From NCBI GenBank assembly GCA_913055215.1, contig CAJXJP010000001.1:798-64797 (forward strand): a stretch of 64,000 nucleotides of DNA. Direction: 5' to 3'. Below the pieces are notes generated by a model, which had not been told where the DNA came from, did not search any database, and worked only from the letters and a program-made list of their open reading frames with translations. The DNA comes from an uncultured Candidatus Altimarinota bacterium (lineage in GTDB: Bacteria; Patescibacteriota; Gracilibacteria; BD1-5; UBA6164). The position numbers were made by a program, and so were the translations under genes. Shown in pieces: positions 40,644-60,360 of this stretch (its first letter is position 1; each line of letters opens with the position of its first letter).

Positions 40644-41500
40644 TGAAAAAATTAATCATTCAACAAATTCTTTCTGAATATTTTGATAAATATCAAATAG
40701 ATCAAATATTACAAAAACTAACTGGTTTCACAAAAAACCAGTTGTTTTTTTGTGAAGAACTAGATGATATTACAGAATCTACTCTGAAAATAATAACTGA
40801 GCAAAGTAAAAACTGAATTCCTTTTGAGTATATTATAAATAAAGCTGAATTTTATGGTTTAGACTTTTATGTCGATAATAGAGTATTAATCCCAAGGAAT
40901 GATACAGAAATTATGGTGGATTTAGTAATAGAGTCTGTTGATGATCAACTAAATTCAGGACCGGTCCTAATTGATATCTGAACTGGAAGTTCTTGTATTC
41001 CATTGTCTATATTAGAAAATACTCCTAAAATTATAGAAACCCACGTGGTTGATATCTCAGAAAAGGCTCTAGAATTAAGTAAAATAAATATTCAAAAGTA
41101 TAAAAATAATATTCAACAATACCTTTGAAGTCTTTATTCACCTCTTATTTCAAAAGATTTCTCTCAATCTCCCGTATTTATAACAGCAAATCTACCATAT
41201 ATAAAAGATAATGATTTTGATAACATGTCTATCGAAACCATAACACATGAGCCAGATTTGGCTCTCTATGGATGAAAGGAAACGTGATTTGAATTATATG
41301 AACAACTCATTCAACAAATAATCCAACAGATTAACCAAAAGTTATTACAAACTGTATTTTTGTATATAGAAATATGATTTGATCAAAAAGAATATACTGA
41401 AAGCTATTTAACTAAATTAGGTCTGAAATATTCAATTCATAAAGATAATTCTTGAATTGATAGATGTGTTCAGATTGAGTTTGACTCATACTTGAAATAA
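40643..41500 (+). CDS. prmC: Release-factor glutamine N5-methyltransferase PrmC/HemK-like
   Basis: IPRNDTE, LIDIGTGSSCI, the motif IV variant TANLPYI, and HEPDLALYGG. The start overlaps the upstream stop (TAATG). Confidence 0.8.
40957..40968. repeat. Palindrome AGGACCGGTCCT (core GGACCGGTCC), copy 1, inside prmC
   Basis: Read directly; encodes S-G-P-V-L. Confidence 0.95.
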
Positions 41501-41551
41501 TTAATTAAATTGCTACAATAAAACAAAACTATTTATAATTCTCAAAAAAAT

Positions 41552-42202
41552 ATGTCTTTAGAAGAGTTTACACCTGTTGAATCTTCGGAATGATGAGCAC
41601 AATCCGTAGAGATATCAGAAAAATTTAAAGAATCTGTAAAAAGAGCAGGCTCTGGGATAAAAAGAACACAAAAAGATGAAAAAAAAGCCAAAAAAAATGA
41701 TTTACTTTTGGCTGGTTTTTTAGTGAAAATTATAATAGATAAAAAATTTGATTACGTTTTAGAACCACTTTTTGATGCACTTCATAACGGATTTTCATCT
41801 AATCTTCTTTTATGAATACTATCTCTTACACATGAAGAAGTTTCTCAGAAAATTAGAGAATTCTCAGAAAAACCATATACAGAGTATTCTTTTCAATATC
41901 CAGAATCATTTGAATTTAACGACTCAACTGTGGATCCAGAAGTAAAAACAAGAATAAATTATTGGGTTGAAGATATAGTCGATATACTTTCTTATGAATA
42001 TTCGAGTTTAAAAGTAGTAGAACTTCAAGAATTATTTTTAAAAGAATACGACTCTCTTGTCCTTTATACAAAAAAAGTATTTATATTTTTCCTTCATAGT
42101 TCAAATATAAAAATCACAGAATCTCAAGCAAAGTGAATTACAGAATTTATCTTATCTGAAGTCGAAAAATCTATTAAAACACTTAAAATAGACGATGTTT
42201 AA
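41552..42202 (+). CDS. Hypothetical protein, 216 aa
   Basis: ATG 41552 to TAA 42200-42202 with TGA read-through. The ORF-track piece 41930..42136 is in the same frame. No family recognised. Confidence 0.6.
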
Positions 42203-42204
42203 AA

Positions 42205-42236
42205 AAGTACAAAACCTAATTTTGTGCTTTTTTTTA
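42205..42236 (+). terminator. Terminator hairpin plus T run
   Basis: agtacaaaa...ttttgtgct followed by TTTTTTT. Confidence 0.6.
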
Positions 42237-42354
42237 TGAAAAAATATCCAATTATTTCAATAATTAAAATTATTATCAGCAACTACTAAAAATGCAAAAA
42301 TAATCTGGTAAATAAAACAATTAAATAATAATAAATATTCGCTTACGAATAAAT

Positions 42355-42382
42355 TTGACTTTCGGAAAACAATGGGTAAAAT
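42355..42382 (+). promoter_or_regulatory. Promoter of fusA (TTGACT-N16-TAAAAT), followed by a CCCGGCAC discriminator
   Basis: ttgact ttcggaaaacaatggg taaaat cccggcac, about 105 nt upstream of the ATG. Confidence 0.55.
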
Positions 42383-42486
42383 CCCGGCACAAACGAGTAT
42401 GTACTACGGATATTTCTTGAGAATATTCGCTATTTATACATATTTCTGTTTAATGAAATTTATTTTTAAAATTTAATATTTTTGCA

Positions 42487-44631
42487 ATGACTAAAGCTAC
42501 ACCTTTAGATAAAATCAGAAATATTGGGATTATTGCCCATATTGATGCAGGGAAAACTACTTGTACAGAAAGAATTCTGTACTATACTGGTAGAATTCAT
42601 AAAATTGGTGAAACTCACGATGGTGAAGGTACAATGGATTGGATGGAACAAGAACAAGAAAGAGGTATTACAATTACTTCAGCAGCTACAACTGCTTTCT
42701 GGAAAGACCACCAAATTAATATTATTGATACTCCAGGTCACGTGGATTTTACAATTGAAGTAGAAAGATCACTAAGAGTACTTGATGGTGGGGTTGCTGT
42801 ATTTGATGGTTCTCAAGGTGTTGAACCTCAATCAGAAACTGTATGGAAACAAGCTGATAAATACGATGTACCAAGAATCTGTTTTGTTAACAAAATGGAT
42901 AAAATGGGTGGTGATTTTGAAATGTCTGTTGAAACAATCAAAAAAAGATTAGCTGGTGATAAAGTTGTTGCTATTCAATATCCTATTGGTGCTGATGATT
43001 CATTTGAAGGGATCGTAGATCTTATTGAAATGAAAGCTTACCACTTTGAAGGAGATTCTGGTGAAAACATTACTGAAATCGAAATTCCTGCTGATATTAA
43101 AACTAGATGTGAAGAATTAAGAGAAGAAATGGTTGAAAAAGTTGCATCAGCTGATGATGAACTTATGGATAAATATTTTGAAGAAGGTGAATTAACTGTT
43201 GCTGAAATCAAAAAAGGTCTAAGAACAGCTACTTGTTCTACAGCTTTATACCCAGTAGTTTGTGGATCTGCTCTACAAAATATCGGTGTACAAATGGTTA
43301 TTGATGCTGCTGTTGAATTCCTTCCTTCTCCAATGGATGTAAACGAAGGTGAAATTGATTGTAAAGATATCGATTCAAAAGAATCTTTCAAACAAATTCC
43401 AGTTGCTAACGATTCTTCTTTAGCTGCTATTGCATTTAAAATTGCAACTGACCCATTCGTAGGGAGATTAACATTTACAAGAGTTTACTCTGGTACAATT
43501 AAATCTGGTTCATACGTATATAATGCTACAACTGGTTCAAAAGAAAGAGTTGGTAGATTACTACAAATGCATGCAAATGATAGAGTTGAAATTCCTGAAA
43601 TTACAGCTGGTAACATTGGTGCAGTAATTGGTCTTAAAAATACTAAAACAGGTGATACTCTATGTGACGTTAACGATAAATTCCTAGTTGAATCTATTGA
43701 ATTCCCACAACCAGTTATCTCTATTTCAGTTGAACCAAAAACAAAAGCTGATCAAGAAAAAATGGGTATGGCACTATCAAAATTAGCTGAAGAAGATCCT
43801 TCATTTAAAGTTGCTACTGATCCAGAAACTGCTCAAACTATTATTTCTGGTATGGGTGAACTTCACCTTGATATCATTGTTGATAGAATGAAAAGAGAAT
43901 TTAAAGTAGAATGTAACGTTGGTGAACCACAAGTTGCATACAGAGAAACAATTAAAAATGTTGCTACTGATATTGAACATAAATACTCTAAACAAACTGG
44001 TGGTAGAGGTCAATACGGTCACGTTGTTATCACTTTTGAACCATATACTGAAATGGATGAAGAAGATGTTAAAAACGAAGAAAAAGAAAAACCTACACAT
44101 AAATTTGTTAATAAAATTGTTGGTGGTACTATTCCAAAAGAATATATCCCAGGTGTACAAAAAGGTCTAAACGAATCTTACCAAAGAGGTTTTGTTGCTG
44201 GTTACCCAATGGTAGACATCAGAGCTACTCTAACTTTTGGTTCATTCCATGAAGTTGATTCATCTGAACTATCATTTAAATTAGCTGCATCAAAAGCATT
44301 CCAAGAAGCATGTAGAAAAGCAAAAGCTATTCTAATGGAACCTATTATGAAAGTTGAAGTTAATACTCCAGAAGAATATATGGGTGATGTTATTGGACAA
44401 TTAAACTCTAAAAGAGGGAGAATTGAAGAAATGGGTGATAGAGGGCAAGCTAAAATTATTACTGCTTTCGTTCCACTTTCTGAAATGTTTGGATACATGA
44501 CTGATCTAAGATCAGCTTCACAAGGGAGAGCTACATACGGTATGGAATTCGATCACTACGAAGAAGTTCCTTCTAATGTTGCACTTAAAATTGTTGAAGA
44601 AAGAGGTTTCAAATTATCTGAAGAAGATTAA
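42487..44631 (+). CDS. fusA: Elongation factor G
   Basis: Intact 714-aa ORF even under the standard code: [21 protein letters not shown]... Confidence 0.97.
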
Positions 44632-44637
44632 TCAAAA

Positions 44638-44672
44638 TAAAAAAAGATTCACAAATTGTGAATCTTTTTTTT
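44638..44672 (+). terminator. fusA terminator (aagattcacaa/ttgtgaatctt plus T run)
   Basis: Perfect 11-bp stem followed by TTTTTTT. Confidence 0.75.
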
Positions 44673-44976
44673 GCTACTTTTTTTATATATGTCAATTAAA
44701 AAGTAGTCATAATTAAGGAAAAAGTACTATTTTTTTTTTGCATTTTTGTATTTTTCCTTAAACTAATCATTGCTTATAAAGATAAATAAGCCACCAACTA
44801 AGTTTAAATAAAAATTTATACTTCAAGACTCTTCAAAATAAAGTCTTTAAAAGGAAAATCCGTAATAATCATTTTGATCATCAGAAAAAAATAATTATTT
44901 ATGTAATGACAACGATTACATATTTTTTTAGGGAAACTCATTTTGTAAATTTTTTTACAAATTAACAAAAAATAAA

Positions 44977-46464
44977 ATGCAATATGCTACATTAATAATA
45001 ATGTGAGTTATTTTTTGAATGGCTCTCTCTGTAGTATTTTTCTTCATTTGGGAAAATAGAAAAACTACAAAAGCAAAATCAGAATCAGAAAAAATTATCG
45101 CTGAAGCTGAAAGAAAAAGAGAAAACATTCTAAACTCGACAAGAAAAGAAAGTAATGAAATTATTAAAAAATCTGAAAAGATTGAAGAAAGAATTTTAGA
45201 AAGAGAAGGTAAAATTGAACAAAAGTTAGAACAAATTGAGCAAAAATATGACAAAATTGCTCAAAAAGAAAATGATATCAAAGAAGAAAAAGAAAAGATT
45301 TTTGATAAACAACATGAACTAGATGGGAAACTTGAAGAAATGTCAAAGTTGACAGAAAAAGAAGCACGTGAGTTATTCTTAGAACAAATTAAAAACAAAT
45401 ATCAAGATGATGGTCTTGAAGTTGTTAAAAAATTTAAAAAGAAAACTGAAGATAGCAAAAAAGAAGTTGCGAGAGAAATTATTCTAAAATCTATTCAACA
45501 ATATGCTGGTGATGTTACTTCTGAAGTAACAACTACAGTGATTGAAATTCCTTCGGATGATATCAAAGGGAAACTTATTGGGAAAGAATGAAGAAATATT
45601 ACAACTTTTGAAAAATCTGCTTGAGTTGCTCTTATTATCGATGATACTCCAAATTCAGTATTTATCTCTGCTTTTGATCTATTCAGAAGATATGTAGCTA
45701 AAAAATCATTAGAAAAACTTATCGAAGACGGAAGAATTCAACCAGCTAGAATCGAAGAAGTTATAGCAAAAACTGAAGAAGAAGCTCATATACTTCTTAC
45801 TGAATTATGAAACAAAGTTACTGAAGAACTTGGGATTACTAATATTCCAGATGAAATGTTACCTATTGTTGGGAAACTAAGATTCAGAACAAGTTATGGA
45901 CAAAATATTCTAAAACATTCTAAAGAAGTTGCACTCATAGCTGAACAATTAGCTATTGAATTAGGAGCTGATCCAAAACTATGTAAAACTGGTGGGTTAC
46001 TTCATGATATTTGAAAAGCTCTTGATCAAGAATACGAAGGAACACACCCTGAAATTTGAGGAAAACTTGCTAGAAAATATAAAATGAACGATAAAATCGT
46101 TGATATGATTGAAAATCATCACGGTGAACAATTCTCAATTTCACTAGAAGCTGCTATTGTTCAAGTTGCTGATGCTATTTCATCTGTTAGACCTGGTGCA
46201 AGAAGAGAAGTTATTGAAGACTATATGAAAAGAGTTCAAGAAATGGAAGCTCTTGTTCAAAGTTTCTCATGAGTAAATAAAGCCTTTGCTCTTTCTGCTG
46301 GACGTGAAATTCGTGTATTTGTAGATGCTGCTACAATTAGTGATCTACATGCACAAGACATGGCAAAAGAAATTGCAGAAAATATTCAAGAAAAATTATC
46401 ATATCCTGGTGAAGTTAAAGTAAACCTGATCAGAGAAATGAGAGTAATTGAATTTGCTAAATAA
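44977..46464 (+). CDS. rny: Ribonuclease Y (N-terminal TM helix, KH and HD domains)
   Basis: [12 protein letters not shown] (KH domain), LLHDIGKA (HD domain), and [18 protein letters not shown] at the C-terminus. Confidence 0.92.
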
Positions 46465-46538
46465 TCAGTAATATTGACGAATTACGAAAATTTTATACAA
46501 TCTTTTCGTAATTCGTTTTATTTTTTAATAAAATTTCT

Positions 46539-47096
46539 ATGTATAATGCGAGTGACTTAAAAGTTGGTAAAAAATTTATTATGGATAATGCTCCATACGA
46601 AGTAGTATCATACTCTCAAAAAGTAATGGGTAGAGGTGGTTCTATTATTAATATTAAAGCGAAAAATTTATTAACTGGTTCGAATGTTCCTAAAACATTT
46701 TCTGACCATGATAGATTTCCACCTGCTGATATTGCAACACATGAATATGATTACCTATATAATGACGGTACAAACTACTACTTTATGAACAATGCTACTT
46801 TCGAACAAGTAGAACTTCAAAGAGATGTATTAGGAGATGCTGAATTATTCTTACAAGATGGTGATAAAGTTCTTTTACAAGAATATAATGGTCAACCAAT
46901 TAATGTAAATCTAGAACCAAGTTGTATTCTAGAAGTAGAAGATACTCCACCTGGTGAAAAAGGTGATACTGCTACTGGATGAAAAAAACCAGCTACTATG
47001 GTTACTGGTTTAGTAATCCAAGTTCCTTTATTTATTAATATTGGTGATAAACTAATTATTGATACAAGAACAAAAGAATATAGATCAAGAGCATAA
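46539..47096 (+). CDS. efp: Elongation factor P
   Basis: GDTATGGKKPA, with the second Gly encoded by TGA at 46980-46982; the loop is VMGRGGS. Confidence 0.93.
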
Positions 47097-47101
47097 AAAT
47101 C

Positions 47102-47134
47102 AAAAAAGCAAAGGAAAAATCTTTGCTTTTTTTG
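47102..47134 (+). terminator. efp terminator
   Basis: agcaaag-gaaaaat-ctttgct followed by a T run. Confidence 0.7.
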
Positions 47135-47180
47135 TTGATTAATGTAGACTAGTACAAATTATTTTTTAATTAAGAATATT

Positions 47181-47990
47181 GTGTTTCCCTTTTTCGCACC
47201 ATTTTCTTTTGAACCTCTCAATGGGTTTATAATATATACCTTTGGTTTCTCATTAATGATCTGTTTTTTTGTCTTCTTATGGATGATAAAAAAGCTTTCT
47301 GAACGTTACCAATACAGCTACAGTATTTTTACACAAAATATCTTATGGTATTTTTTATCTGTATTTATATTTTCGCGTGTATTTTATATTATTGCCAACT
47401 GGACAGAATTAAAATATATTCAAAATCCTTTTGAATTTTTCTTTATGAATGATTTTGATTTTTCCCTTATTTGAGGGATAATTTGATTTTTTGCATTTTT
47501 GACACTTCAATTAAAAGTTAGAAAAGAAAAGTTAGAACAATATATCGATGGTATTGCTATTTCATTTTTACTTGTATTAGCACTTGGTTACTTATGAGCA
47601 TTATTAGGATGACAAGTATATGGAAAAGAAACTCACTTCTGAATTGAAATTCTCTATACACATAGTTTTACCCCAATTCCATATCAAGTAGCTATATTTC
47701 CTCTACCAATTGTCTACTCTATAACATTTTTCATACTATTTTGTATTAGTTATAGTTTATCACTTTTTATTCATCTTCGTTCGTTATTATGATATTTAAG
47801 TTTTATTAGTATAGCTTCAGTATTATTAATATTTGAATTCTTTAGTGGGAAATATGATATTTTTTCTCAAACACTCTGAATAAATATGACTCAAATTTTT
47901 AGTATAATAGCAATAGTTATTTTTACCTATAAATTATTTCAAGCATATAGATCTGGGGAAATTAAAGAAAATACTATAATTTTAAAATAA
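47181..47990 (+). CDS. Lgt-family (prolipoprotein diacylglyceryl transferase-like) membrane protein
   Basis: GTG start. FSLIGGIIGFFAF and LGYLGALLGGQVYGKET resemble Lgt motifs, but the usual Arg of G-R-x-G-N is Tyr. Confidence 0.5.
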
Positions 47991-49475
47991 ATGTACTCGA
48001 AAAATAAATTATTTCTGTTTTTCTGAATTTCATTTTTATTTTGAATTTGACTGAACGCTCTGATACCAAATATTCAAAATTCACTTCAAGTACTCCTTAT
48101 TATCGGAGTACTTTTTTTTGCATACTATTTTTTCTTTCGTAAATATTTTTTATACTTATTTATTGCTCTTATTTGATGTTTTATTGGTGTGTTCCTTATT
48201 TATAGTCATATCTTGAAATTGAATCAAAATATGGCGAATTATGAGTATATTTTTAACAATAAACATCTCTTTGAATGAAATATTATAGATCTCTATAAAA
48301 AAAAGGAACATTCTCAAGAATTTATTTTAAAGGTTCAAAAAATTAATGAAAAAGTTATTTGAGATGATATTTACATTCTTATAGATATTCCAAATTTTTA
48401 TACAATTTGAAAATGATATAATATTAAGACTAATATAAAAACCTATACTTTTAAAAATTCTTCTCAATTTAAATATAAAGAATTTATGCTTTCAAAAAAA
48501 ATATATTGAAAAGCATATATAAATAATTTAGAAATATGAGAAATAGAAAGTCAGAATTATTTTTTAGAACAAATTTCAATATTTAGAACAAATGTGTTAG
48601 AAATAATCCATATTATCTATCCTAAAAATGAGGCACTATTTTTAGGAGGTATACTTCTTTGAGCTCGTGAAGAAATTCCGCAAAACTTAAAAAATGATTT
48701 TAATAAAAGCTGATTAACACATTTTATAGCAGTAAGTTGATTCAATATAACTATTTTAATCCTATTTGTGTGATTTTTATTTTGACGCTTACCAAAAGTT
48801 ATACAAATTATCGCTATTACGCTCAGTATAGTTTCTTTTACATTTTTAGTTGGTGCAAATATACCAGTTATTCGTGCTTCAATAATGTGACTTATTTGAT
48901 ACTATATTTTGCAATCATGACGTTCATGAGATTCACTCAGTTTAGTTGTCTTAACTGCTTGTATCCTTGTATTAATTAATCCCATGATTCTTGTGTATGA
49001 TATAAGTTTTCAACTGAGTTTTTTAGCGGTTTTATGAATACTATATACACAAAATTTCTTCAAAAGATTACTCTTTTTTGTACCTGATTTTTGATGAATA
49101 AAAGAAGCTTTAGTTTTAACACTTTGAGCACTTGTATTTACCTGTCCAATAATGGTAATGAATTTTTGAGTATTGTCTATTATAGCACCAATTGCTAATA
49201 TATGCGTTGCATGGACTATTCCATTAGCTATGTTATTAGGTTTTATTTCCATACTTGTCTACTATGTCTATCCAATGTGATGAATTGTGTTTTGATTTAT
49301 TCCTTGGTTATTATTAAAGTTTGATATTATAGCTGCACATTATTTTTGAAATTTAAAGTATGCGACTGTTGATATAGATTTTTGAAAATATACTTTTTTA
49401 GTATTTTTAAGTTATTTTACTTTTATTATTTTTTGTATTTTATTACAAACTGAAAAGAAAAAAGAAGAAACGTAG
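47991..49475 (+). CDS. comEC: ComEC/Rec2-like DNA internalisation channel, short form without a C-terminal metallo-beta-lactamase domain, 494 aa
   Basis: KSGLTHFIAVSGFNITIL and IRASIMG; polytopic. I checked every codon from 48720 to TAG 49473-49475. Confidence 0.8.
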
Positions 49476-49490: not shown

Positions 49491-50546
49491 TATTAATTCT
49501 TTATTTTCTGAAAGATTTTCTGACATTTTATCAATTTCTCAAGCTGGAAATATATCTCATGATTCTATTTCTCATGCCTCAGCTATAATTAGTTCTAATT
49601 CAGATTGGTTTTTTATTTTTTCTTCTTCCGATGTACTGTTGTTAGTTAATAATTCTTGTGTTTCTTGATATTGTCTTTGTAAAATTTCTTTTCTTTGTTC
49701 TACTCATAATTTCATCATTTGAAATTGTTTACTTCATTTTGCTCATACTGCTCACTCTGCTGTACCAGCTAATGTATATAACATTAATAGTCATTCAAAT
49801 CTTTCTTCGTTTGTATTACCATTTTGAATAGATTTCATACATCTTTCAAAGCAAACGGTATCTCTACGAATATTTTGTGCATTTGTTAATATTTCATTTG
49901 ATGCCGTTTCAACTGCTATATTAAAGTCTAATTCAGGATTTCCTTCAATTCAATCTGGAGTAATTGAAATAAAATTTCTTCAAATAAGAGAGTAAACCTC
50001 AGCTTCAATAGGCGAACACTCATTGTTTTCTATTTGTTTTTTTATATCTGGAAAACTTTCTTCAAATTCCATTTTCCCTCATAATGATTCTGGGTCTCTA
50101 GCTTCATTACACTGCTCTAAAATTGATTTAATTCTCAAGACTTGAGACTCATCAGTATTTATATCTTCTCATACAAATTTACCATTTGTATCTATTTCTT
50201 CTAATACTCAGTCAAGAGTTTCTAGTGATATTTGATTTTGTTGAACTAGTGAAGATAAAATTGGTAAAAATGGTTGATCTTCTAATTTTGGATATTGATT
50301 TTGAATTTCTTTGATTAATTTATCATTATTTTTTAGGACCGGTCCTCTTAGTGTATCTATTTCATCAGGATTTTTAAATTCTGCATATCATAAACTTTCA
50401 GCTACTCACTTTTTTGTAGCTTCTGTTTGTTCTTCTGTTGCAGAAGTTTTTTCATCTTCAAAGGCCTGATTATCCGCATTAATTTCAGCTTTTAACTCAG
50501 GATTTTCAAAAAGATTCGGTCCATGATTTTCAATAAGTGGAGACAT
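49488..50546 (-). CDS. Hypothetical acidic protein, 352 aa
   Basis: ATG 50546 to TAA 49488-49490 with TGA=Gly. No family recognised. Contains an AGGACCGGTCCT palindrome. Confidence 0.55.
50335..50346. repeat. Palindrome AGGACCGGTCCT, copy 2, inside the hypothetical CDS 49488..50546
   Basis: Read directly; encodes R-G-P-V-L on the minus strand. Confidence 0.95.
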
Positions 50547-53192: not shown

Positions 53193-53460
53193 ATTAATTT
53201 GTTATATTTATAAAATATTTGTGTTGCCTAAAAAATTCTATTGACAAAAAAAAATCAATACCTTTTTTGTGCTTTGATGAATAAAGGTCAACCTATTGAA
53301 ACAGAAACTGGCTGGACATTACCTTGAATTGGACGACAAACAATTGGGTTTAATTTTCCTAAGCTTAATTAGTTATAAACTCGAATAATTTACAGATTAA
53401 TGCTACATTACATCAATGCACTACTGTAGAATATAATTAATTTTCACAATTAAAAGCACA

Positions 53461-53490
53461 AAAAAAATCCACTTGCGTGGATTTTTTTTA
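53461..53490. terminator. rplS terminator (aatccac-ttgc-gtggatt flanked by A/T runs)
   Basis: Hairpin immediately after the rplS stop. Confidence 0.7.
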
Positions 53491-53493
53491 TAA

Positions 53494-53856
53494 TTATTTA
53501 GCTTTTCTAACTTCTTTAAGTCTAGCAGCTTTACCAGTAAGTTCTCTGATAAATTTAATTGATTTTCTTCTAACTTTAAATTGTCTAAGAATTTCAATTT
53601 TTTGAATAGTTGAAGAGTGAATAGCAAAAACTTTTTCTACTCCGAATGCTCCGATTTTTCTTCTAACAGTAATAGTTCTTTCCATTGATGATTTCCCAGC
53701 AACTTTAATAACTAAACCTTTAAATCTTTGAATTCTTTCTTTGTTACCTTCTTTTAAGATTTGGTAAACTTCAACTTCCATACCAGTTTTAATTTGGTCT
53801 CTTCCTTCTTGTAAAAAAGGAGCTTGAACAGCTTTTAGTAATTCTGAATTTGTCAT
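53494..53856 (-). CDS. rplS: 50S ribosomal protein L19
   Basis: Intact 120-aa ORF with typical L19 sequence. Confidence 0.93.
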   Translation of the reverse strand: MTNSELLKAVQAPFLQEGRDQIKTGMEVEVYQILKEGNKERIQRFKGLVIKVAGKSSMERTITVRRKIGAFGVEKVFAIHSSTIQKIEILRQFKVRRKSIKFIRELTGKAARLKEVRKAK

Positions 53857-54057
53857 TCTATTTATACTTATTAATTAAAATACCCAATTTATTTGCGCAT
53901 ATCATATAAAAATATAATTAAATTGCAAATTATTTTTTAATTTTTAACTATTTTTTAACATTTTTCTCTAAATATTTAGATAATTATATATTTTTTTGCA
54001 TTTTTTACTAATATTTGGTAAAATTAAAAAGAATTAATTTATAAATAATACAATTGT

Positions 54058-54543
54058 ATGGACTTTAAAAAATTGTTTGAAGATACAAAAACAAAAGCTA
54101 ACGAAATGACAACTAAGGCTATTGATTTCTCATCTCAAAAATTAATGGAATCAAAATTAACATTAGAAACAAAAGAAGATTTAGAAAAATTTCAATCTGA
54201 TTCTAAAAATAAAGAGTTCACAAGTAAAGAAACTGGTGAAACTAAAACATTTACAAGAAGGTCTATTGTTATTATTGGTGAGGAAAAAACAGATTTTTTC
54301 AAAAATGCTCTCTATATTTTACCCGTTATTGCAACAAAAGCATTTACACAAAATGTTTCTGTAAAATTAGCAAAATCTGATATTAAAGAATTTGATTATT
54401 CTCAAATTGAAGTTACTGATTTCCCAAGTTTAGTTTTATTTGAAAATGAAAAAGTATCAAAAGTTATCACGGGAGAGGATGCAATATTAAAACTTGTAAA
54501 AAGTTTCGATTTAGATATAAATAAACAGATAGATAATCTATAA
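54058..54543 (+). CDS. Hypothetical protein, 161 aa, with a thioredoxin-fold-like C-terminus lacking CxxC
   Basis: Intact ORF. ...DFPSLVLFENEKVSKVITGEDAILKLVKS resembles the C-terminal beta-alpha of thioredoxins. Confidence 0.5.
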   Translation: MDFKKLFEDTKTKANEMTTKAIDFSSQKLMESKLTLETKEDLEKFQSDSKNKEFTSKETGETKTFTRRSIVIIGEEKTDFFKNALYILPVIATKAFTQNVSVKLAKSDIKEFDYSQIEVTDFPSLVLFENEKVSKVITGEDAILKLVKSFDLDINKQIDNL

Positions 54544-54566
54544 AATATATTCATAAATCTGAGATT

Positions 54567-54785
54567 ATGACTTTAGAAATTATTGACGCTTTGTATATAG
54601 TTTTAATTATGTTTACGAGTATAATTTGAACTTTACTGATCATTGCATTGTTAAGAGTACTAAAAGTATTGAAAATGGCTACAGAAATTGTAGACGCTTA
54701 CAATAAAGTAAAAGAAGTTTTTGCTGCTTATAAACAAATTCCAGAAATTGTTAAAGAAACTGCAAAAGAATATTTCAAAAAGTAA
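54567..54785 (+). CDS. Small membrane protein, 72 aa
   Basis: ATG to TAA with one TGA and one TM segment, followed by a terminator. Confidence 0.4.
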
Positions 54786-54813
54786 AAAAAAAGAGCCGAA
54801 GGCTCTTTTTTTA
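54784..54813. terminator. Bidirectional terminator (agagcc-gaa-ggctct)
   Basis: Hairpin with A and T runs. The stem is nearly identical to the terminator at 4513-4527. Confidence 0.7.
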
Positions 54814-55698
54814 TTTCTTTTGATATTCTTTTCTGACTAGTTTTCTATTATTAAATATCCAATTCCATATATCTCCTCTAAATTCTATACCATGATTAAA
54901 GCAAAATTTTGTTAACACTTGTTCAAAAGCAGATTCTTCACCGTGTGCAAAAATATCTCTTTGTAATATTTTTTTACCATTATCATCTTTTAATATAAAA
55001 GATCTCCCATTTAAAGCGATTTGATTTACTCTTGCTGATTCGGTTATAAGTCACTCAAATATAAGCGATTCTTTTTCCTTTTCAAACTCTATTTCTTTAT
55101 GCTTTTTTTCAAAAATATCTTCATAATACTGTTTTGAACAGAATAAATTAAATGATTGCATAAAGTTCATTTCCTTATAGCCTACATCGGTCCATACTAT
55201 TTTGTATTTTTCAATCATTTTTTCAAAACTTTCATCAAAGTTGTCAGGATTAATTCTTACTCATGTTTTTTTCTTATTCCCATTATGTGTAAGTTCAATC
55301 GCAAATAATAGTTTTCCATTATTTTTTTCAATTCTTACTCATAAAACTTTTCATGTTTCGTCTAATATTTCTTTTGTTTTTAATTTAGTAACTGATCTTC
55401 TCATTTCAATTAATTCAGATTTCTTTTTGATAATATCTAAAATTAATTTATTTTCATCAAGGATTCAATTATTTAAATAATCACTGAAATTATAATAAAT
55501 TTGTTTTTCTTTTTCGTCTATTCATTTAATTCTTAATCGTATTCTTCATAGTTTTTCATCTTTTACTCATTCTATGTATTCTAGATTAGTAATTCTTCAC
55601 TCTTTAATATCATTTAAACTGTATGGAGTTTGAATTAATTCAGAACTCAATTTCACTTCATTATAGGAAAAATCTCTATTTTTTGCTACTAAATTCAT
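54811..55698 (-). CDS. Hypothetical protein, 295 aa
   Basis: ATG 55698 to TAA 54811-54813 with many TGA=Gly. No family recognised. Confidence 0.55.
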
Positions 55699-55832
55699 AA
55701 CTGATAATAATAAAAGTAATACCTAATAAGTATAGTATATTTTTAAAATTAAGTAAATAAAAAAAGAGCAAATTTGCTCTTTTTTTATTTGTCCTTATAT
55801 TTTTAACAAATTACTTATAACTTTTGCACAAT

Positions 55833-57689
55833 ATGTGAAAAATTATTAAACTTGATCCTCAGTTGGCAAACCAAATTGCAGCTGGTGAGGTTGTTGAAAG
55901 ACCGGTCTCAGTTATTAAAGAATTAGTTGAGAATTCAGTTGATGCTGGTTCAACAGAAATAAGAATAGATATTGAAGAGTGAGGTATTCAAAAAATTGTA
56001 ATTACGGATAATGGTTGATGAATTTCGAAAGAAGATCTTCCTCTGGTTCCTGAAAAGTATGCCACTTCAAAAATAAGCTCTTTACAAGATTTATATAATG
56101 TTATGACTTTTGGTTTTCGTTGAGAAGCATTATCGTCAATTTCATCGGTATCTCAGTTTGAAATAATATCAAAAACGCCTGAAGAAAGCTTTTGAAATAG
56201 CTTAAAAATACATGATGGACAAGTTTGACAAATCGAAACTTATCCTGCTGAAACTGGTACAAAAATTATCATTGAAAATCTTTTTTATAATACTCCTGCA
56301 CGTTTAAATTATCTTAAAAAGCCAAGAACAGAATACAATCATATTCTTGATTTTCTCAATAATATGGCAATGAGTTATCCACATATTTGATTTCAATTTA
56401 ATAATGATGGAAAAAATATTTTTCATTATCAATCTGGAGAAACTTTAGAAACAAGATTATATTCTATATATGGTGACCAAATAAGCTCACAACTCATTCC
56501 TATAGATTTTTCACTCTATTGAATGAGAATTCATGGGATGATTTCTGATCCAAAAGTAAGTTTTTGAAATAAAAATAGACAAGTACTCTATGTAAATAAA
56601 AGAGTTATCAAGTCACCACTTATCATGAAAGCAATTTCTGATGCTTATAATCGTTTTATTCCTCATGGGATGCATCCAGTTTATATTTTACAAATTGAGG
56701 TAAATCCAACAGAAGTAGATGTAAATGTTCATCCAAGAAAAATGGAAGTTCGTTTTGCGAATGAATCTAGTTTATTTAAGGCTGTTCACTCTGCTATTTT
56801 TTCAAAGCTTGAATCGACAACTCTATTAAGTCATTCATGAGAAAATGGTCCAGAATGAGAAAAATCAGAATGAAGCGCTATAAATAATAATTTTTCTCAT
56901 AAAAATAATTTTCAATCAAGTTCTCAAAACTCAGCACCTCAATATTATACCGGTTCTGGGACAAAATTTAAATCGTATTCTCCATATAAAAATATAGAGT
57001 CTAATCCAGCTCAATGAAAAATAGGAGCTGCCTTAGATTTTTCAAAAGCAACATTAGATTCTGAACATATTCAAGAAAATAGTGGACCGGTCCATAATTC
57101 AAATGACCTACACTATACAAAAATGTGAAAAATCATCGGACAAATGCATAATTCTTATATTATTGTTGAAACAGAGTCATGAATGCAGATTCTTGACCAA
57201 CATGCTTTAGCTGAGAGAATTATTTATGAAAAACTCGTAAAATCACAATATACAGCGAAAGTACAAGGACTCTTAATTGGAGAATCTATACAATTACAAC
57301 CAAAAGAACTGGCTATCTTAGAAGAAAATAGACAAACTTTTGAAGAAATGTGATTTGATATAGAAATATTTCAAGCTGGAAGTTTGATAATAAATGGAAT
57401 TCCTGATTTTATAAAAAAAGAAAACCTTTCTCAAATTTTCACTGGAATTCTTGAAGATATTGGTTCACAAAGTAATAATAAATCTCAGACTCTCGAAGAA
57501 GTGAGAAATAAAATATTTGCCTACACAGCCTGTCGTAGTGCGATTAAGTTCGGAAATAAACTTAATCTCTTCGAAATGAATAGATTATTAAATGATGCCG
57601 TTATGGACTACTCTGCCACTTGTCCACACGGAAGACCCGTTATTTATGAAATGAACTTACAAGAGTTGCAAGATAAATATGAAAGATAA
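55833..57689 (+). CDS. mutL: DNA mismatch repair protein MutL
   Basis: Starts [62 protein letters not shown]; C-terminal CPHGRP. Confidence 0.93.
57083..57094. repeat. Palindrome TGGACCGGTCCA, copy 3, inside the mutL linker region
   Basis: Read directly; encodes S-G-P-V-H. Confidence 0.95.
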
Positions 57690-57718
57690 AAAAACCTCTT
57701 AAATAAGAGGCTGTTTTT
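57689..57718 (+). terminator. mutL terminator (cctctta-aat-aagagg)
   Basis: Hairpin followed by a T-rich run. Confidence 0.6.
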
Positions 57719-58001
57719 ACTGGCGGATAAAGTTTATTGCCGCTTTTTTTATTTTGCTTATTTGAGAAGTATTTTTAGTCATTTTACAAAATATCATCAG
57801 TATATATATAGTAAATGCTATATTAATTTCTACAATATAATGTGCTGAACTTGTTGCGGAAAATCCAACAAATTTTACTCCCGTAAGATTTAATATATAT
57901 AAAGCAATTGGGAATGTAACAATTCCTATTATAAGTGCCTTTAATATATTCCAAAAAAAGAATTTTAGATAATAAAACATATAACCTCCAGTATTGTGCA
58001 T
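57717..58001 (-). CDS. Small hydrophobic protein, up to 94 aa
   Basis: Intact ORF without TGA and with two or three TM segments. The start is uncertain. Confidence 0.4.
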   Translation of the reverse strand: MHNTGGYMFYYLKFFFWNILKALIIGIVTFPIALYILNLTGVKFVGFSATSSAHYIVEINIAFTIYILMIFCKMTKNTSQISKIKKAAINFIRQ

Positions 58002-58089
58002 GACATCTATTAATAGAATACGATTATTAAATTAAAAATGTAATGTATTTAAAATATATCTCTTTTTATTAAAATAAGCAAATTATAGA

Positions 58090-58126
58090 AAAAAGACACT
58101 CAATAAATTGAGTGTCTTTTTTTTGT
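58090..58126 (-). terminator. Terminator downstream of the tRNA (agacactcaat...attgagtgtct)
   Basis: 11-bp stem flanked by A/T runs. Confidence 0.7.
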
Positions 58127-58135
58127 TTCAGTATA

Positions 58136-58209
58136 TGGTATCCCCAGCTGGGATCGAACCAACGTCTATCCCTTAGGAGGGGATTGTTCTTCCACTGAAC
58201 TATGAGGAC
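58136..58209 (-). tRNA. tRNA-Arg (anticodon CCU), CCA encoded
   Basis: The minus strand GTCCTCA TA GTTC AGTGGAA GAAC A ATCCC CTCCTAA GGGAT AGAC GTTGG TTCGATC CCAGC TGGGGAT A CCA folds into a 74-nt cloverleaf. Confidence 0.85.
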
Positions 58210-58237
58210 AAAAAAAGCTCGCAAGCGAGCTTTTTTA
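58210..58237 (-). terminator. Terminator of the upstream HTH gene (agctcgc-aa-gcgagct)
   Basis: Hairpin with flanking A/T runs. Confidence 0.7.
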
Positions 58238-58242
58238 TGATT

Positions 58243-58821
58243 TTATATGTTTACATACATAATCGCTGCTGAAACTGCGATGAGTATAACCACAAACACT
58301 ACCAAAATCAAATTTGTTTTCTTTTCACTACGAAGTTCTCCTCCAAGTCTTTCTTTTTCAATTTTTAAGTCTTCTACTTCATTCGTTAAATACGTTTTAG
58401 ATTCATCAAGTAGAAATTGTGATTTTTTGAATTCAATAAGAGAAACTGAGTTTTTTACAACTTCTTCATATTTACCAAGTTTCACAGATAATTCTTGAAT
58501 TTTTCAATCCTTTTCTTGAATTTGAGTACGTAAGTCTCCATAAATATTATCTAAAGTTTGATTTACTTCTGATGGAATTGATACACTTTTTGATTCTGAT
58601 GATTCAACATGAACTGATTTAGTTTCAGTTTTTGGTACAATAACTTCTTGTTTAATCGAAGTTCCTCAAAGAAGGGCTTCAACATCTGAACCTTTTACAT
58701 AAACAACTTTGCCATCTTTTTTGGCTCTGAGTTTTCATGCTTTGATATATCTGTCTACACTACGAGTAGAAATATTTAATTTTTCTGCTACTTCTTGTCT
58801 GGTATATTTATACATAGACAT
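58243..58821 (-). CDS. Membrane-anchored HTH (excisionase/MerR-like) DNA-binding protein with a coiled coil, 192 aa
   Basis: YTRQEVAEKLNISTRSVDRYIKAGKLRAKKDGKVVYV at the N-terminus; C-terminal TM LILVVFVVILIAVSAAIMYV. Confidence 0.6.
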
Positions 58822-58853
58822 CAATTTTAATATATAATATGTCTATAAAATAC

Positions 58854-58885
58854 AAAAAATCCCTGATTAATCAAGGATTTTTTGT
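58854..58885 (-). terminator. glyA terminator
   Basis: tccctgatt-aatcaagga hairpin with one mismatch, flanked by A and T runs. Confidence 0.6.
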
Positions 58886-58934
58886 ATTTAGCTTTGACAA
58901 TTTATAAAAAAATATGTCTACTATGTCTATAATA

Positions 58935-60167
58935 TTAAGAATATACAGGAAATTTTGATGATAAATCTAAAATTTCTGCTCTTAATTCTTGTAATTTTTC
59001 AGGATTTTGATGATTTTGTACAGCTTCAGTAAATACTTTTGCAATAATCTTCATTTCGTCTTCTTTCATCCCTCTTGTCGTAGCAGCTGGAGTTCCTATA
59101 CGAATACCTGATGGATCAAGTGGTTTTCTTGGATCATATGGAATCATATTTTTATTTGTAGAAAGACCAACAGTATCTAAAGCCGCTTCAGCTTCTTTCC
59201 CTGTTATTTCAAAACTTCCAAATACATCAATTAAGACTAAGTGATTATCTGTTCCATTTGAAGTAATTTTAAATCAACTCTCCATTAATTCAGTTGCCAA
59301 TACTTGTGCATTTTTAACAACTTGTTGAGAATATTCTTTAAAACTCGGATCAAGTGCTTCTTTAAATGCTACAGCTTTTGCTGCAATAAGATTTTCGTGT
59401 GGTCCTCATTGTACACCTGGGAAAACAGCACGTGCAATATCTTTAGCATATTTTTCTTTCGACATAATCATCGCTCATCTTGGTCCTCTTAATGTTTTAT
59501 GTGTCGTTGTTGTTACTACATCACAGTAAGGAACTGGATTTTCTAATACTCAACCAGCTATTAAACCAGCAATATGAGCAATATCAGCCATAAGAATTGC
59601 TCAAATTTTATCTGCAATTTCTCTAAATCTTTTCCAATCAAGGTTTCTAGAATAAGCTGAGAATCCTGCCAAAATCATTTTAGGTTTGTGTTCTAACGCT
59701 AGTCTTTCTACTTCATCCATATCGATGATTTCAGTTTCTTTATCTAGAGTGTATGGAATAATATTATAAAGTATTCCAGAAAAATTCATTGGATGGCCAT
59801 GACTTAAATGTCCTCCTTGATCTAAACTCAGACCAAGTACCGTATCACCAGGATTTAAAACACCTAAATATACTGCTAAATTCGCTGGAGAACCACTTAA
59901 AGGTTGAACATTAACATATTCTGCCCCAAACAATTCTTTTGCTCTTTCAATAGCAAGGTTTTCAATTTGATCGATAAATTCTTGACCAGCATAATATCTT
60001 CTTCCAGGGTATCCTTCTGAATATTTATTTGTGAGAATACTTCCTGCAGCTTCCATTACATCTGCTGATGCATAATTTTCTGATGCAATAAGCTCAATTT
60101 CAGCTTCTTGTCTTTGTGTTTCTTTTTGAATTAAATCAAAAATAGCATTATCATTTTGTTGTAACAT
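58935..60167 (-). CDS. glyA: Serine hydroxymethyltransferase
   Basis: [40 protein letters not shown]. Confidence 0.95.
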
Positions 60168-60338
60168 GGTTTATGAGTAAAAAAATAAAAATCAATAAAA
60201 CTGATTTCTAACCATGGATAATAAGTTTTTGAACAAATGTATATATCATATTTCTTACATTAAAAAATATATGTGAGTATTTTATAAATTTTTTCACATT
60301 TTTCCATCATTTTATAAATATTTTGTTAAAAACTAAAA

Positions 60339-60360
60339 AAAAGAGGACCGGTCCTCTTTT
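60339..60360. terminator. Palindromic hairpin AAAAGAGGACCGGTCCTCTTTT
   Basis: Perfect 22-nt palindrome centred on the GGACCGGTCC motif, in tandem with the next terminator. Confidence 0.55.

Follow-up and report, generated by a model that had tools for sequence, protein, structure and literature searches.

The question raised by this locus is what keeps a GC-rich 10-bp palindrome, GGACCGGTCC, in four exact copies in an AT-rich chromosome. The genes of the window, that is, of the whole stretch of 64,000 nucleotides, are readable only with genetic code 25 (TGA = Gly), which assigns it to the Gracilibacteria (CPR), and the copies lie, as originally stated, in prmC (40958), in a hypothetical gene on the minus strand (50336), in the mutL linker (57084) and between ctpA and glyA (60345). 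The features are as follows.

40643-41500, plus strand: prmC, a HemK-family gene scoring above the NCBIfam cut-off
40957..40968, plus strand: motif copy AGGACCGGTCCT in prmC, an exact match, reads S-G-P-V-L in phase 0
49488-50546, minus strand: hypothetical 352-aa gene with a motif copy
50335..50346, minus strand: motif copy AGGACCGGTCCT in this hypothetical gene, reads L-R-G-P-V-L
55833-57689, plus strand: mutL
55899..55908, plus strand: motif copy AGACCGGTCT in the conserved N-terminal G-E-V-V-E-R-P-V-S of mutL, reads R-P-V
57083..57094, plus strand: motif copy TGGACCGGTCCA in the inter-domain linker of mutL, reads S-G-P-V-H
57634..57641, plus strand: unoccupied compatible site in the mutL endonuclease motif C-P-H-G-R-P-V-I
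60338..60361, minus strand: motif-centred 24-nt perfect palindrome AAAAAGAGGACCGGTCCTCTTTTT, an intrinsic-terminator-like hairpin

All four 10-mers extend to 12-nt palindromes (three AGGACCGGTCCT, one TGGACCGGTCCA), as had been noted for the three coding copies and as is also the case for the terminator copy. The hairpin, which follows ctpA and precedes glyA by about 175 nt, is perfect, as claimed, but spans 24 nt rather than 22. Family searches with the 352-aa product, NCBIfam included, yielded no match.

The 10-mer is by far the most over-represented in the window. The expected number of copies is 0.0004–0.011 (Markov models of orders 0–4), and none appeared in 100 dinucleotide-preserving shuffles; the earlier rough estimate had been about 0.002 per 64 kb. 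No 10-mers with one mismatch were found in the window. The 8-bp core GACCGGTC occurs five times once the AGACCGGTCT copy of mutL is counted (for 10-mer and core together, the expectations span 0.0004–0.02), and up to 40.9 kb there are no copies at all.

The conserved unit is this core with R at position −1 and Y at position +1, that is, RGACCGGTCY, while sub-words outside the core and flanks beyond ±1 have background frequency and composition. The word is sharply defined, with 50 exact versus five one-mismatch copies, the latter number being close to the 4.1 expected by chance, and the outer positions (G, A, T and C) vary no more than the centre does. Since the unit is GACCGGTC with R/Y flanks, AGACCGGTCT is a full member. 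The second relaxed version proposed originally, GAACCGGTTC at 5176, does read x-Pro-Val (E-P-V), but is two mismatches away from the core and shows no sign of membership. The glycine sites of the word in phase A are all GGA, although TGA, the commoner glycine codon, would leave the core intact as well.

The word is not confined to the window by chance. The related genomes sampled, 13 in number and 322 kb in total, contain 70 copies of the core where 0.09 would be expected, an approximately 765-fold enrichment, almost all sampled DNA coming from one syntenic neighbourhood of about 75 kb, so that genome-wide spread is an extrapolation; locus L111 is the sole non-syntenic one with motif copies. 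The density in motif-bearing loci is 0.06–0.49 copies per kb (one per 2–17 kb), whereas 74 other AT-rich related loci (1.09 Mb) contain a single core. The phylogenetic distribution is lineage-specific and patchy. RGACCGGTCY characterises a clade of AT-rich, code-25 marine Gracilibacteria.

Copies are found at orthologous positions in prmC, at three sites of mutL, in gatA, uvrA, comF and ctpA, and in one terminator. The prmC site, directly 5' of the SAM-binding D-I-G-T-G motif, has GGACCGGTCY also in L002, L171, L173, L174 and L175, and [G/R]-P-V is seen at this position in 19 of 118 clusters of PrmC homologues. The copy in the 352-aa gene is kept in all conspecific strains (97–99.9% identical), and no orthologous copy was found in L002, where the orthologue shares only 34% identity. 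At mutL 55899, AGA CCG GTC is shared by the window, L002, L010, L012, L176, L177, L178 and L182, whereas five other relatives encode the same E-R-P-V peptide with CCA or CCT followed by GTT, GTA or GTC. At the linker site, [G/R]-P-V-[H/Q] is conserved in L002, L010, L012, L177, L178 and L182, with GGA or AGA followed by CCG GTC, amid an otherwise variable linker. The third mutL site, at 57634, is written AGA CCC GTT in the window, two changes from the core; it is exact (AGA CCG GTC) in the sister species L178 and in L177, one step from the word in L002 and L176, and uses only common codons in all eight motif-free lineages. The motif-centred hairpin between ctpA and glyA is orthologous in L002, L176 and L177 (identical 31-mer), and in L178.

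UvrA, MutL and ComF show a suggestive, post hoc excess of word copies.

These alignments bear on the possibility that the copies are insertions of a miniature mobile element, an in-frame 12-nt palindromic unit resembling a very small REP, RPE or MITE, as might be thought from the four 12-nt palindromes of the window and the in-frame position of three of them. No indels are observed at the sites: the PrmC alignment of motif-bearing and motif-free orthologues is gap-free there, and F-G-P-V-Y of CtpA aligns with F-G-V-A-Y. Moreover, proto-sites one mismatch away exist at invariant peptides, and beyond ±1 the flanks are background. The insertion of 12-nt units is thus refuted, and we give it practically no chance.

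The codons of the word are rare: CCG constitutes 4.9% of proline and GTC 6.1% of valine codons, and CCG-GTC is used for four of 37 Pro-Val pairs of the window, all four being motif copies. In the comparison of the window with L002 (67% amino acid identity), all three alignable coding motif octamers of the window are conserved, as are three of the six motif octamers of L002; among control octamers the proportion is 16%. The codons CCG and GTC are conserved in 6/6 cases inside the word and in 0/17 outside. The word occupies 45 of 75 synonymous opportunities (60%), including 9/10 in L176 and 11/11 in L177, and none of 76 in motif-free relatives. The unrealised opportunities reside in the genes for L2, L4, EF-P, SecY and the like, the word being missing from highly expressed, codon-biased genes. 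The tripeptide [G/R]-P-V itself is 3.2-fold enriched (5.4 versus 1.7 per 10,000 codons). Proto-sites, with a rare codon on one side only, are situated at orthologous positions, invariant peptides among them. Hence the word originates through point substitutions at any position where the protein accepts them, by synonymous substitutions to rare codons first and also by amino acid changes towards [G/R]-P-V, and, once present, is conserved across species with otherwise scrambled synonymous sites.

The three coding 10-mers of the window indeed share the phase GGA-CCG-GTC, but the claim that the motif is always read as Gly-Pro-Val holds inside the window only: relatives use two frames, Pro-Val and Thr-Gly, the latter accounting for 8 of 17 independent classes of coding sites. 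The third frame, which is not used, would require the tripeptide D-R-S and, with it, the almost unused codon CGG. The common phase in the window, the rarity of the codons, and the position of several sites before domain starts (the Rossmann fold of PrmC, the C-terminal domain of MutL) could be explained by a signal at the level of protein or translation, such as a Gly-Pro-Val peptide or a translational pause caused by rare codons between domains. Both the reading frames and the codon choice contradict this. Not only do the Thr-Gly classes and non-coding copies exist, but identical peptides (E-R-P-V, C-P-H-G-R-P-V) are encoded by common codons in relatives, and the first residue alternates between Gly and Arg exactly as GGA/AGA would, which indicates an RGA constraint in DNA and not a protein constraint. 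Such a signal is hardly credible as the explanation.

The copies are distributed unevenly, with 10 versus 1 and 12 versus 2 copies in adjacent 20-kb segments. Since highly expressed genes lack the word, the apparent 20-kb cluster is largely a matter of gene content and codon bias, with no bounded domain; some motif-sparse genes, however, encode membrane proteins and are not highly expressed, so that part of the heterogeneity is left over and speaks against the HIP1/uptake-type reading. In a sister species the motif sites go on past the right end of the window. Still, the strong differences between neighbouring segments, together with the empty first 40.9 kb of the window, would be expected if the word were a chromosome-structure site, recognised by a nucleoid-organising or segregation protein of the parS/ParB, Noc–NBS, MatP–matS or RacA–ram type, or marking interaction domains. 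Like parS, NBS, matS and ram, the word is palindromic, often (here mostly) intragenic, conserved in position between species and unevenly spread over regions. A gene within the motif-dense segment encodes a protein with HTH_17, a coiled coil and a transmembrane segment; however, the motif-free L004, L007 and L011 have it just as well, in identical synteny. The known nucleoid-protein sites are 13–16 bp long and tolerate mismatches, whereas RGACCGGTCY is shorter (8–10 bp), exact, has no halo of mismatched copies and saturates synonymous opportunities; the near-saturation and the tripeptide excess suggest "as many copies as tolerated". Neither canonical parS nor a DnaA-box cluster or origin signature was found in the window, and no cognate protein in the sampled loci. 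On the other hand, HIP1 of cyanobacteria shows 10–90 kb periodicity (PMC5861425) and was proposed by Xu et al. to mark chromosomal interaction domains. On balance, we consider a chromosome-structure role unlikely.

About 85% of copies are intragenic, without extended complementarity. The density is 0.38 per kb in non-coding versus 0.24 in coding DNA, most non-coding copies being orthologues of one terminator, so that non-coding DNA is not clearly enriched. As a pure uptake drive should fill unconstrained DNA, this counts against the uptake reading. All intergenic copies lie in hairpins consisting of an A-tract, a stem and a T-tract; the arms consist of two copies in L013 and L111, and elsewhere single copies are central. 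The word has this second use, as core or as arms, in some terminator hairpins. That a genome of 27% GC merely builds terminators or RNA hairpins from it, the coding copies being incidental, is very improbable. In the interval 44–64 kb of the window only one of about 12 terminators uses it, in L012 and L011 the orthologous terminators are built on different cores, and codon-level conservation in mutL, prmC, uvrA and gatA would be left unexplained; as the sole explanation, it is effectively refuted by the coding sites.

With type II sites of the CCGG family, AgeI (ACCGGT), Cfr10I (RCCGGY) and SgrAI (CRCCGGYG), the word has in common a central CCGG, strict symmetry, outer positions that are degenerate (R/Y) and a length of 8–10 bp. 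A genome, however, normally avoids the restriction sites of its own enzymes, and RGACCGGTCY is about 765-fold enriched. No restriction-modification genes were found in the sampled DNA; neither the window nor any retrieved locus yielded a methyltransferase, a restriction enzyme or a specific receptor. The same resemblance suggests a functionless by-product of methylation-linked biased repair at ACCGGT/CCGG, Elhai's model for HIPs, in which methyl-dependent or Vsr-like mismatch repair would turn near-matches into the exact word. The all-or-none sharpness of the word and the one-step proto-sites with one-sided rare codons are consistent with this model, as is the patchy phylogeny, expected from gain and loss of a mobile methyltransferase gene; alternate cyanobacterial HIPs co-occur with matching methyltransferases (PMC4390886). 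At the same time, about 320 kb of motif-bearing DNA revealed neither a methyltransferase nor a Vsr gene, and T:G repair at CCGG would leave the outer G, A, T and C unprotected, yet they are invariant. Finally, sites persist amid scrambled synonymous positions, a signature read by Xu et al. as selection and not replenishment, and amino acid changes have been fixed to create sites. Hence we find the by-product model doubtful.

The remaining comparison is with words acting in DNA exchange, and two genes of the window are relevant.

47991..49475, plus strand: comEC, the DNA-internalisation channel, TIGR00360, 65.4 bits versus a cut-off of 36.5
38150..38899, plus strand: type IV pilin-like protein, N_methyl E = 4e-4, just below the Pfam cut-off

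The originally proposed ComEC is confirmed, its identical 494-aa product also matching Pfam Competence (PF03772), and comEC itself contains no motif copies; the pilin has only the sub-threshold match and none in NCBIfam. To our knowledge, no CPR bacterium has been shown to take up DNA with a sequence bias. Natural transformation via ComEC was demonstrated in one (PMC10633639); uptake sequences are not mentioned in that study.

HIP1 (GCGATCGC) and the alternate cyanobacterial HIPs are likewise GC-rich palindromic octamers, sometimes 10-mers (PMC5861425, PMC4390886). Further shared properties are tens- to hundreds-fold enrichment, conservation of orthologous sites, both coding and non-coding, above the level of control octamers, with codons better kept inside the word, more than one reading frame, scarcity in highly expressed, codon-biased genes (PMC5861425), lineage specificity with motif-free sister lineages, and uneven density at the 10-kb scale. 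In contrast to the GATC-centred HIP1, whose reported abundance is confined to cyanobacteria (PMC5861425), GACCGGTC is CCGG-centred and its hosts are CPR/Gracilibacteria with code 25 and about 27% GC. RGACCGGTCY is also about 10-fold sparser, though tolerated positions are near-saturated (HIP1 reaches one per 350 nt, PMC5861425), uses two frames only, and no cognate methyltransferase was found in the sampled loci; for comparison with the end-position deviation bias of HIP1 there are only five one-mismatch copies. Methylated HIP1 increases transformation up to more than 100-fold in Synechococcus (bioRxiv 10.1101/2024.09.10.611283).

With DUS of the Neisseriaceae and USS of the Pasteurellaceae the word shares hundreds-fold enrichment in a clade and absence from sisters (as in "dialects"), accumulation by point mutation at tolerated coding positions in preferred reading frames, double use as terminator stems, including two-copy arms, and a host encoding ComEC, ComF and a type IV pilin-like protein. 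DUS and USS are asymmetric, typically occur about once per kb and carry many mismatched copies; RGACCGGTCY, on the contrary, is palindromic, 3- to 15-fold sparser, has no such halo and no clear intergenic enrichment, and avoids preferred codons instead of favouring them. Uptake sequences lie at poorly conserved residues and roughly double the encoded tripeptides, compared to the 3.2-fold excess here (PMC2817400).

The original reading, either an iterated palindrome of the HIP1 kind or an uptake-type signal, passed every test run, given the clade-wide enrichment, orthologous conservation, occurrence in two frames and in non-coding DNA, absence from highly expressed genes, and lineage specificity. 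Our tentative preference, quite possible but short of probable, is that RGACCGGTCY is an iterated palindrome of the HIP1/uptake-signal class, kept by a DNA-level force as a putative self-DNA recognition word. A force on the double-stranded sequence itself would hold it at high copy number throughout the chromosomes of the clade. Because of the strict 8–10 bp symmetry, the CCGG centre and the degenerate R/Y ends, it may be the site of a dimeric DNA-binding or DNA-modifying protein, restriction-enzyme-like or methyltransferase-like, possibly tied to natural transformation. Since the hosts encode ComEC, ComF and type IV pilins, we propose that the word could be a self-DNA tag in a transformation and homologous-recombination pathway, acting either before uptake, as DUS and USS do, or after it, in a methylation-dependent, Chi-like manner, as proposed for HIP1; biased uptake or recombination together with selection would then bring copies close to saturation of tolerated positions. 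Neither HIP1-like nor uptake-type signals had been described in Gracilibacteria, and RGACCGGTCY thus would be an iterated palindrome in a new phylum.

Stop-to-stop reading frames of at least 100 aa in the window sum to 8,256 aa under translation table 11, with which most genes look fragmented, and to 28,104 aa with TGA as sense. TGA falls on invariant glycines in D-I-x-T-G-S of PrmC, in D-N-G-x-x-I and F-G-F-R-x-E-A-L of MutL, and in R-G-P-R-x of GlyA; hence the window is read with genetic code 25, TGA being glycine. Entries of the public protein collection for these contigs follow code 4, TGA being tryptophan, and show W where the organism has G. The best relatives are Candidatus Gracilibacteria MAGs with GatA identity of at most 69%, and the window species is seen again in marine metagenomes; the GatA tree of the relatives is a single-gene, neighbour-joining one. 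As the genome is small (about 1.2 Mb) and extremely AT-rich (about 27% GC; 23–31% in the window), chance copies of the word considered here, RGACCGGTCY, should be essentially nil.

The 10-mer GGACCGGTCC is present in exactly four copies in the window, all four forming 12-nt palindromes, and a fifth site shares the 8-bp core GACCGGTC:

40958, GGACCGGTCC in prmC, phase GGA-CCG-GTC
50336, GGACCGGTCC in a hypothetical 352-aa gene, phase GGA-CCG-GTC
57084, GGACCGGTCC in the mutL linker, phase GGA-CCG-GTC
60345, GGACCGGTCC, non-coding, in the hairpin 60338–60361 after ctpA
55899, AGACCGGTCT in mutL, the fifth core copy

Markov models of order 0 to 4 predict 0.0004–0.011 copies of the 10-mer, 100 dinucleotide-preserving shuffles of the window yielded none, and no other 10-mer of the window comes within an order of magnitude of it in over-representation, which bears out the strong over-representation claimed in the original prediction. 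One-mismatch variants of the 10-mer are absent from the window. The core occurs in the window alone five times against 0.02 expected. Two relaxed versions had been proposed as well. AGACCGGTCT, read as R-P-V, has the full core, and since this core is common to the relatives, the site counts as a fifth member. GAACCGGTTC at 5176, read as E-P-V, is two mismatches off the core, and nothing supports its membership; it lies in a giant ORF of 4,253 aa (4532–17293, minus strand) that has no copy of the word.

The copies are not confined to the window by chance. Thirteen genomes that carry the core (motif-bearing) have 70 copies in 322 kb against 0.091 expected, a ratio of about 765, in a sample that is almost wholly one syntenic neighbourhood of about 75 kb in many genomes, plus the non-syntenic locus L111, and in which orthologous sites are non-independent observations. 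In 74 other loci of related lineages with GC content below 32% (1.09 Mb) there is one copy against 0.26 expected. None occur in close sisters that share the gene order (L156, L092, L094, L100), and L012 and L101, both from CP042461.1, have just the two mutL sites in 34 kb. The density is 0.06–0.49 copies per kb across motif-bearing loci, with 60–100% of the tolerated positions occupied. With the encoded peptide as a proxy for the word, the motif clade comprises 19 of 118 clusters of PrmC homologues, all within the 23 closest matches, and 10 CtpA clusters; the word was present in all six carriers of the PrmC footprint whose DNA was checked. Conspecific strains of the window species keep all sites, a comparison without power at 97–99.9% identity. 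The gene of a hypothetical 341-aa membrane protein (52167–53201, minus strand, between gatA and rplS) varies among these strains, being present in L081, L082 and L084 and absent from L083 and L086–L089, though they are otherwise 97–99% identical. In the motif-free sister L156, the second PrmC site, A-L-Y-G-G-P-V-T-G, is written GGG CCG GTC, with both rare codons and one step off the core, a state that may be left over from a lost word or have arisen by chance.

The core is invariant and has 75% GC. Among 43 distinct sites, 88% have a purine at −1 and 88% a pyrimidine at +1, and the flanks further out match the background. Parts of the core found apart from a complete copy are about as frequent as chance predicts (ACCGGT, 14 observed vs 9.9 expected; GACCGG, 2 vs 3.5; GACCGGT, 1 vs 1.3). 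Fifty exact copies face five one-mismatch neighbours (4.1 expected by chance), of which at least four are positions exact in a sister species. After the Bonferroni correction, no GC-rich palindromic octamer other than GACCGGTC is enriched in two or more genomes. No alternate palindrome was significant in the motif-free relatives except GCCCGGGC in L066, a MAG labelled Peribacteria (34% GC), where it occurs at 9912, 20322 and 20334 (0.027 expected), two copies being the arms of one terminator and one copy being intergenic; this is a weak hint that it may be an alternate palindromic word of another lineage. A scan of a viral collection for TAGGACCGGTCCTA gave nine matches, all unrelated and chance.

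Collapsing orthologous sites by hand leaves 17 coding classes, nine in the Pro-Val phase and eight in the Thr-Gly phase (three each in MutL, UvrA and ComF, two each in PrmC and GatA, one each in CtpA, Fmt and two hypothetical proteins), and four terminator classes. The word had been described as always read Gly-Pro-Val; this is true of the three coding 10-mers of the window and breaks down across genomes, where the Thr-Gly phase is nearly as common. Coding and non-coding DNA have similar densities (0.235 and 0.384 copies per kb). Since more than one reading frame is used and non-coding copies exist, the word is not a peptide motif. A peptide or pause-site reading is contradicted by the Thr-Gly frame, the non-coding copies and the common codons used at the same peptides.

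In the window, CCG makes up 4.9% of the proline codons and GTC 6.1% of the valine codons. CCG-GTC is found in four of the 37 Pro-Val pairs vs 0.1 expected, and all four are copies of the word. The R-P-V of the invariant E-R-P-V of MutL is written AGA CCG GTC in the window, L002, L010 and L012, with synonymous variation in the adjoining codons, and the word is also kept there in L176, L177, L178 and L182; five other relatives use common codons instead. At the same position of PrmC, and likewise of the MutL linker, the first residue toggles between Gly and Arg, which corresponds precisely to GGA/AGA and thereby to R at −1. In a conservation test following Xu et al., applied to the window and L002 (67% amino acid identity), control octamers are identical in 16%, and the alignable coding octamers of the word are conserved in three of three cases for the window and three of six for L002. 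The CCG and GTC codons are conserved in 6/6 cases inside the word vs 0/17 outside (Fisher p about 1e-5, calculated by us from the counts), and other distant genome pairs show the same pattern. Motif-bearing genomes realise 28 of 36 synonymous opportunities in the Pro-Val phase and 17 of 39 in the Thr-Gly phase (9/10 in L176 and 11/11 in L177), vs 0/16 and 0/58, respectively, in motif-free relatives. Motif-bearing genomes offer no synonymous opportunity in the third phase, D-R-S, which needs the near-unused CGG codon. In these genomes [G/R]-P-V is 3.2-fold commoner as a tripeptide, hence amino acid changes have been fixed too. Judged from these comparisons, selection is acting on the DNA word.

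PrmC orthologues with and without the word align with no gap at the site, and F-G-P-V-Y of the L002 CtpA aligns with F-G-V-A-Y of the window. The invariant C-P-H-G-R-P-V-I carries the exact word in L177 and L178, a one-step state with one rare codon in L002 and L176, and two-step states in other clade members, while all eight motif-free lineages have only common codons. Thus the copies arise by substitution. The original prediction had raised an insertion of 12 nt, to be sought at orthologous sites; it is not seen, as the alignments are ungapped, proto-sites exist and the flanks are at background. Ungapped alignments and background flanks also rule out a miniature palindromic insertion (REP, RPE or MITE-like).

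Repair and housekeeping genes are saturated with the word, and unrealised opportunities fall in L2, L4, EF-P, SecY, PheS, RuvB, GGDEF and the giant ORF. The word is scarce in highly expressed, codon-biased genes, a qualitative statement with expression inferred from gene identity. The 643-aa GGDEF protein (diguanylate cyclase; 32725–34758, minus strand) adjoins the ribosomal protein operon of this reduced CPR genome, and this synteny is kept in relatives. The window copies do fall within 20 kb, as noted at the outset, largely because the unrealised opportunities sit in such genes; as a cluster this is largely gene content, and in the sister species, L178, the sites run on past the right end of the window into ComF and UvrA. 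Codon bias and gene content do not fully explain the regional heterogeneity. In two merged 40-kb loci, 10/11 and 12/14 sites are in one half, and several membrane-protein genes of the sparse halves have no copies. Such dense and sparse halves would suit a nucleoid-structure site, which we consider unlikely, as the sites run on outside the window, in uvrA and comF, and recur in L111, the window has neither parS nor a DnaA-box cluster, and near-saturation of tolerated positions is unlike a few placed operators. A small site set of the parS, NBS or matS type, kept to one chromosomal domain, does not fit the same sites and the same lack of parS and a DnaA-box cluster. An origin-proximal or parS-like cluster, prompted by the position of L012 at coordinate 1 of a complete chromosome, was rejected as well, since the source paper is silent on coordinate 1 as the origin, the window has neither of these signatures and the sites extend past the supposed cluster. 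In the merged L177 and L173 sequence, 7 of the 14 sites are in uvrA, mutL and comF, which make up 13.5% of the length (binomial about 1e-3, our calculation, for three genes chosen post hoc), and sites in these genes are also found in L176, L178, L181 and L182; this excess is reminiscent of uptake sequences, which favour genome-maintenance genes.

A search for A-tract/stem/T-tract structures in 44001–64000 gave 24 strand hits vs 4.4 expected, corresponding to about 12 distinct bidirectional terminators, perfect or nearly so, of which the hairpin after ctpA is the sole one based on the word. The ctpA stop codon is inside the loop of the terminator 60368–60401, and the motif hairpin comes directly after it, forming a tandem terminator. 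The orthologous terminators in L012 and L011 have other cores; in L013 and L111, two copies of the word are terminator arms. A 31-nt terminator, AAATAATTTAGGACCGGTCCTAAATTATTTT, is identical at L002 3975–4005, L176 12205–12235 and L177 12215–12245, so that the whole stem is conserved beyond the word, with host PrmC proteins just 74–81% identical to that of L002. A terminator-only role is ruled out by the coding classes and by the use of the word in one of about 12 terminators.

The known hyper-abundant words maintained by selection are mainly HIP1, the highly iterated palindrome of cyanobacteria, the uptake sequences DUS/USS of two proteobacterial families, and Chi. Both HIP1 and the present word are GC-rich palindromic octamers in excess, conserved within and between ORFs beyond controls, occurring in several frames without a peptide or RNA role, anti-correlated with expression, and replaced by alternate words or absent in some lineages. 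The anti-correlation follows from the word being built of non-preferred codons. Over-representation of the HIP class is 15- to 300-fold (PMC5861425, PMC4390886), HIP1 abundance reaches one per 350 nt, and such abundance was stated not to occur outside cyanobacteria (PMC5861425). HIP1 is periodic along the chromosome at 10–90 kb (PMC5861425); here, adjacent dense and sparse 20-kb segments are seen in stretches of at most 64 kb. The word differs from HIP1 in its lower absolute density (0.06–0.49 per kb), its AT-rich code-25 host and its CCGG centre, and in that the DNA sampled yielded no methyltransferase. The comparison with HIP1 made originally stands: octamer, excess, conservation, occurrence across frames and non-coding DNA, and scarcity in expressed genes match point for point, and we class the word among the HIP-like iterated palindromes, here from a new phylum.

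DUS and USS occur about once per kb, and many of their copies contain mismatches. The present word is sparser and nearly always exact. Further, DUS/USS are asymmetric and make terminators from inverted pairs, whereas the word is a perfect palindrome, used as one central copy or as two arms. Both build up through point mutations where the coding sequence tolerates them; uptake sequences are documented to sit at tolerated residues and to inflate the tripeptides that they encode (PMC2817400), and such inflation is seen here too. Thus the uptake-type alternative in the original prediction agrees in the mode of accumulation, the tripeptides and the competence genes, and disagrees in symmetry, density and the paucity of mismatched copies.

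Of the competence machinery, ComEC, ComF and a type IV pilin-like protein are encoded by the hosts. ComEC, previously noted in the window, matches TIGR00360 above the cut-off; the match of ComF to TIGR00201 (E = 3e-32) is full-length, though under the curated cut-off; the type IV pilin-like protein noted earlier has an N_methyl match only (E = 4e-4). Strict symmetry over 8–10 bp, degenerate R/Y ends and a CCGG centre are what dimeric type-II-like enzymes read, and a putative reader of the word would, from its symmetry and centre, be a dimeric type-II-like protein; no reader was found in the DNA sampled. Near-saturation of the tolerated positions points to a constant drive or to a regime where more copies are better. 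Another CPR lineage has been shown to undergo ComEC-dependent natural transformation (PMC10633639), and methylated HIP1 was recently reported to raise Synechococcus transformation up to >100-fold, through uptake and/or a Chi-like mechanism (10.1101/2024.09.10.611283). With the enzyme-like symmetry, near-saturation, competence genes and these precedents, the best-supported mechanism, which we hold tentatively, is that the word would be a self-DNA tag read during transformation or recombination. More doubtful is the specific version in which RGACCGGTCY would be a palindromic self-recognition word of sequence-specific natural transformation, probably read methylated by a dimeric protein. The word might also be a functionless by-product of methylation-linked biased repair; this seems improbable, as neither the window nor the related loci examined (about 320 kb) contain a cognate methyltransferase. 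In the specific transformation version, gain and loss of a trans factor by sister lineages would account for the patchy occurrence of the word.

A 192-aa protein between glyA and mutL (58243–58842, minus strand) carries an HTH_17/excisionase-like domain at the N terminus, a TM helix at the C terminus and a coiled coil, and its HTH matches PADLOC 'mad1'; from these domains it is predicted to be a membrane-anchored DNA-binding protein. As a binder of the word it is not supported, since the same synteny is found in the motif-free L004, L007 and L011 as in motif-bearing relatives.

Our literature search found no report of such a word in CPR/Patescibacteria, and the word itself only in cloning primers. 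It extends the taxonomic range of hyper-abundant, selection-maintained words to the CPR, offers a cleaner system for the question, three decades old, of what HIPs do, and can serve as a clade marker for binning. It shows a DNA-level word reshaping proteins, with the Gly/Arg toggle, the 3-fold tripeptide excess and rare codons in MutL, UvrA and PrmC. As motif-bearing and motif-free sisters share synteny, comparative genomics should pinpoint the responsible protein. We know of no cultured representative of the word-bearing bacteria. If the link to transformation is true, RGACCGGTCY would be the first signal of the Candidate Phyla Radiation that enhances uptake or recombination, and a candidate handle for transforming Gracilibacteria, and the suitably methylated word in donor DNA would be a practical route to manipulate uncultivated, alternatively coded bacteria.
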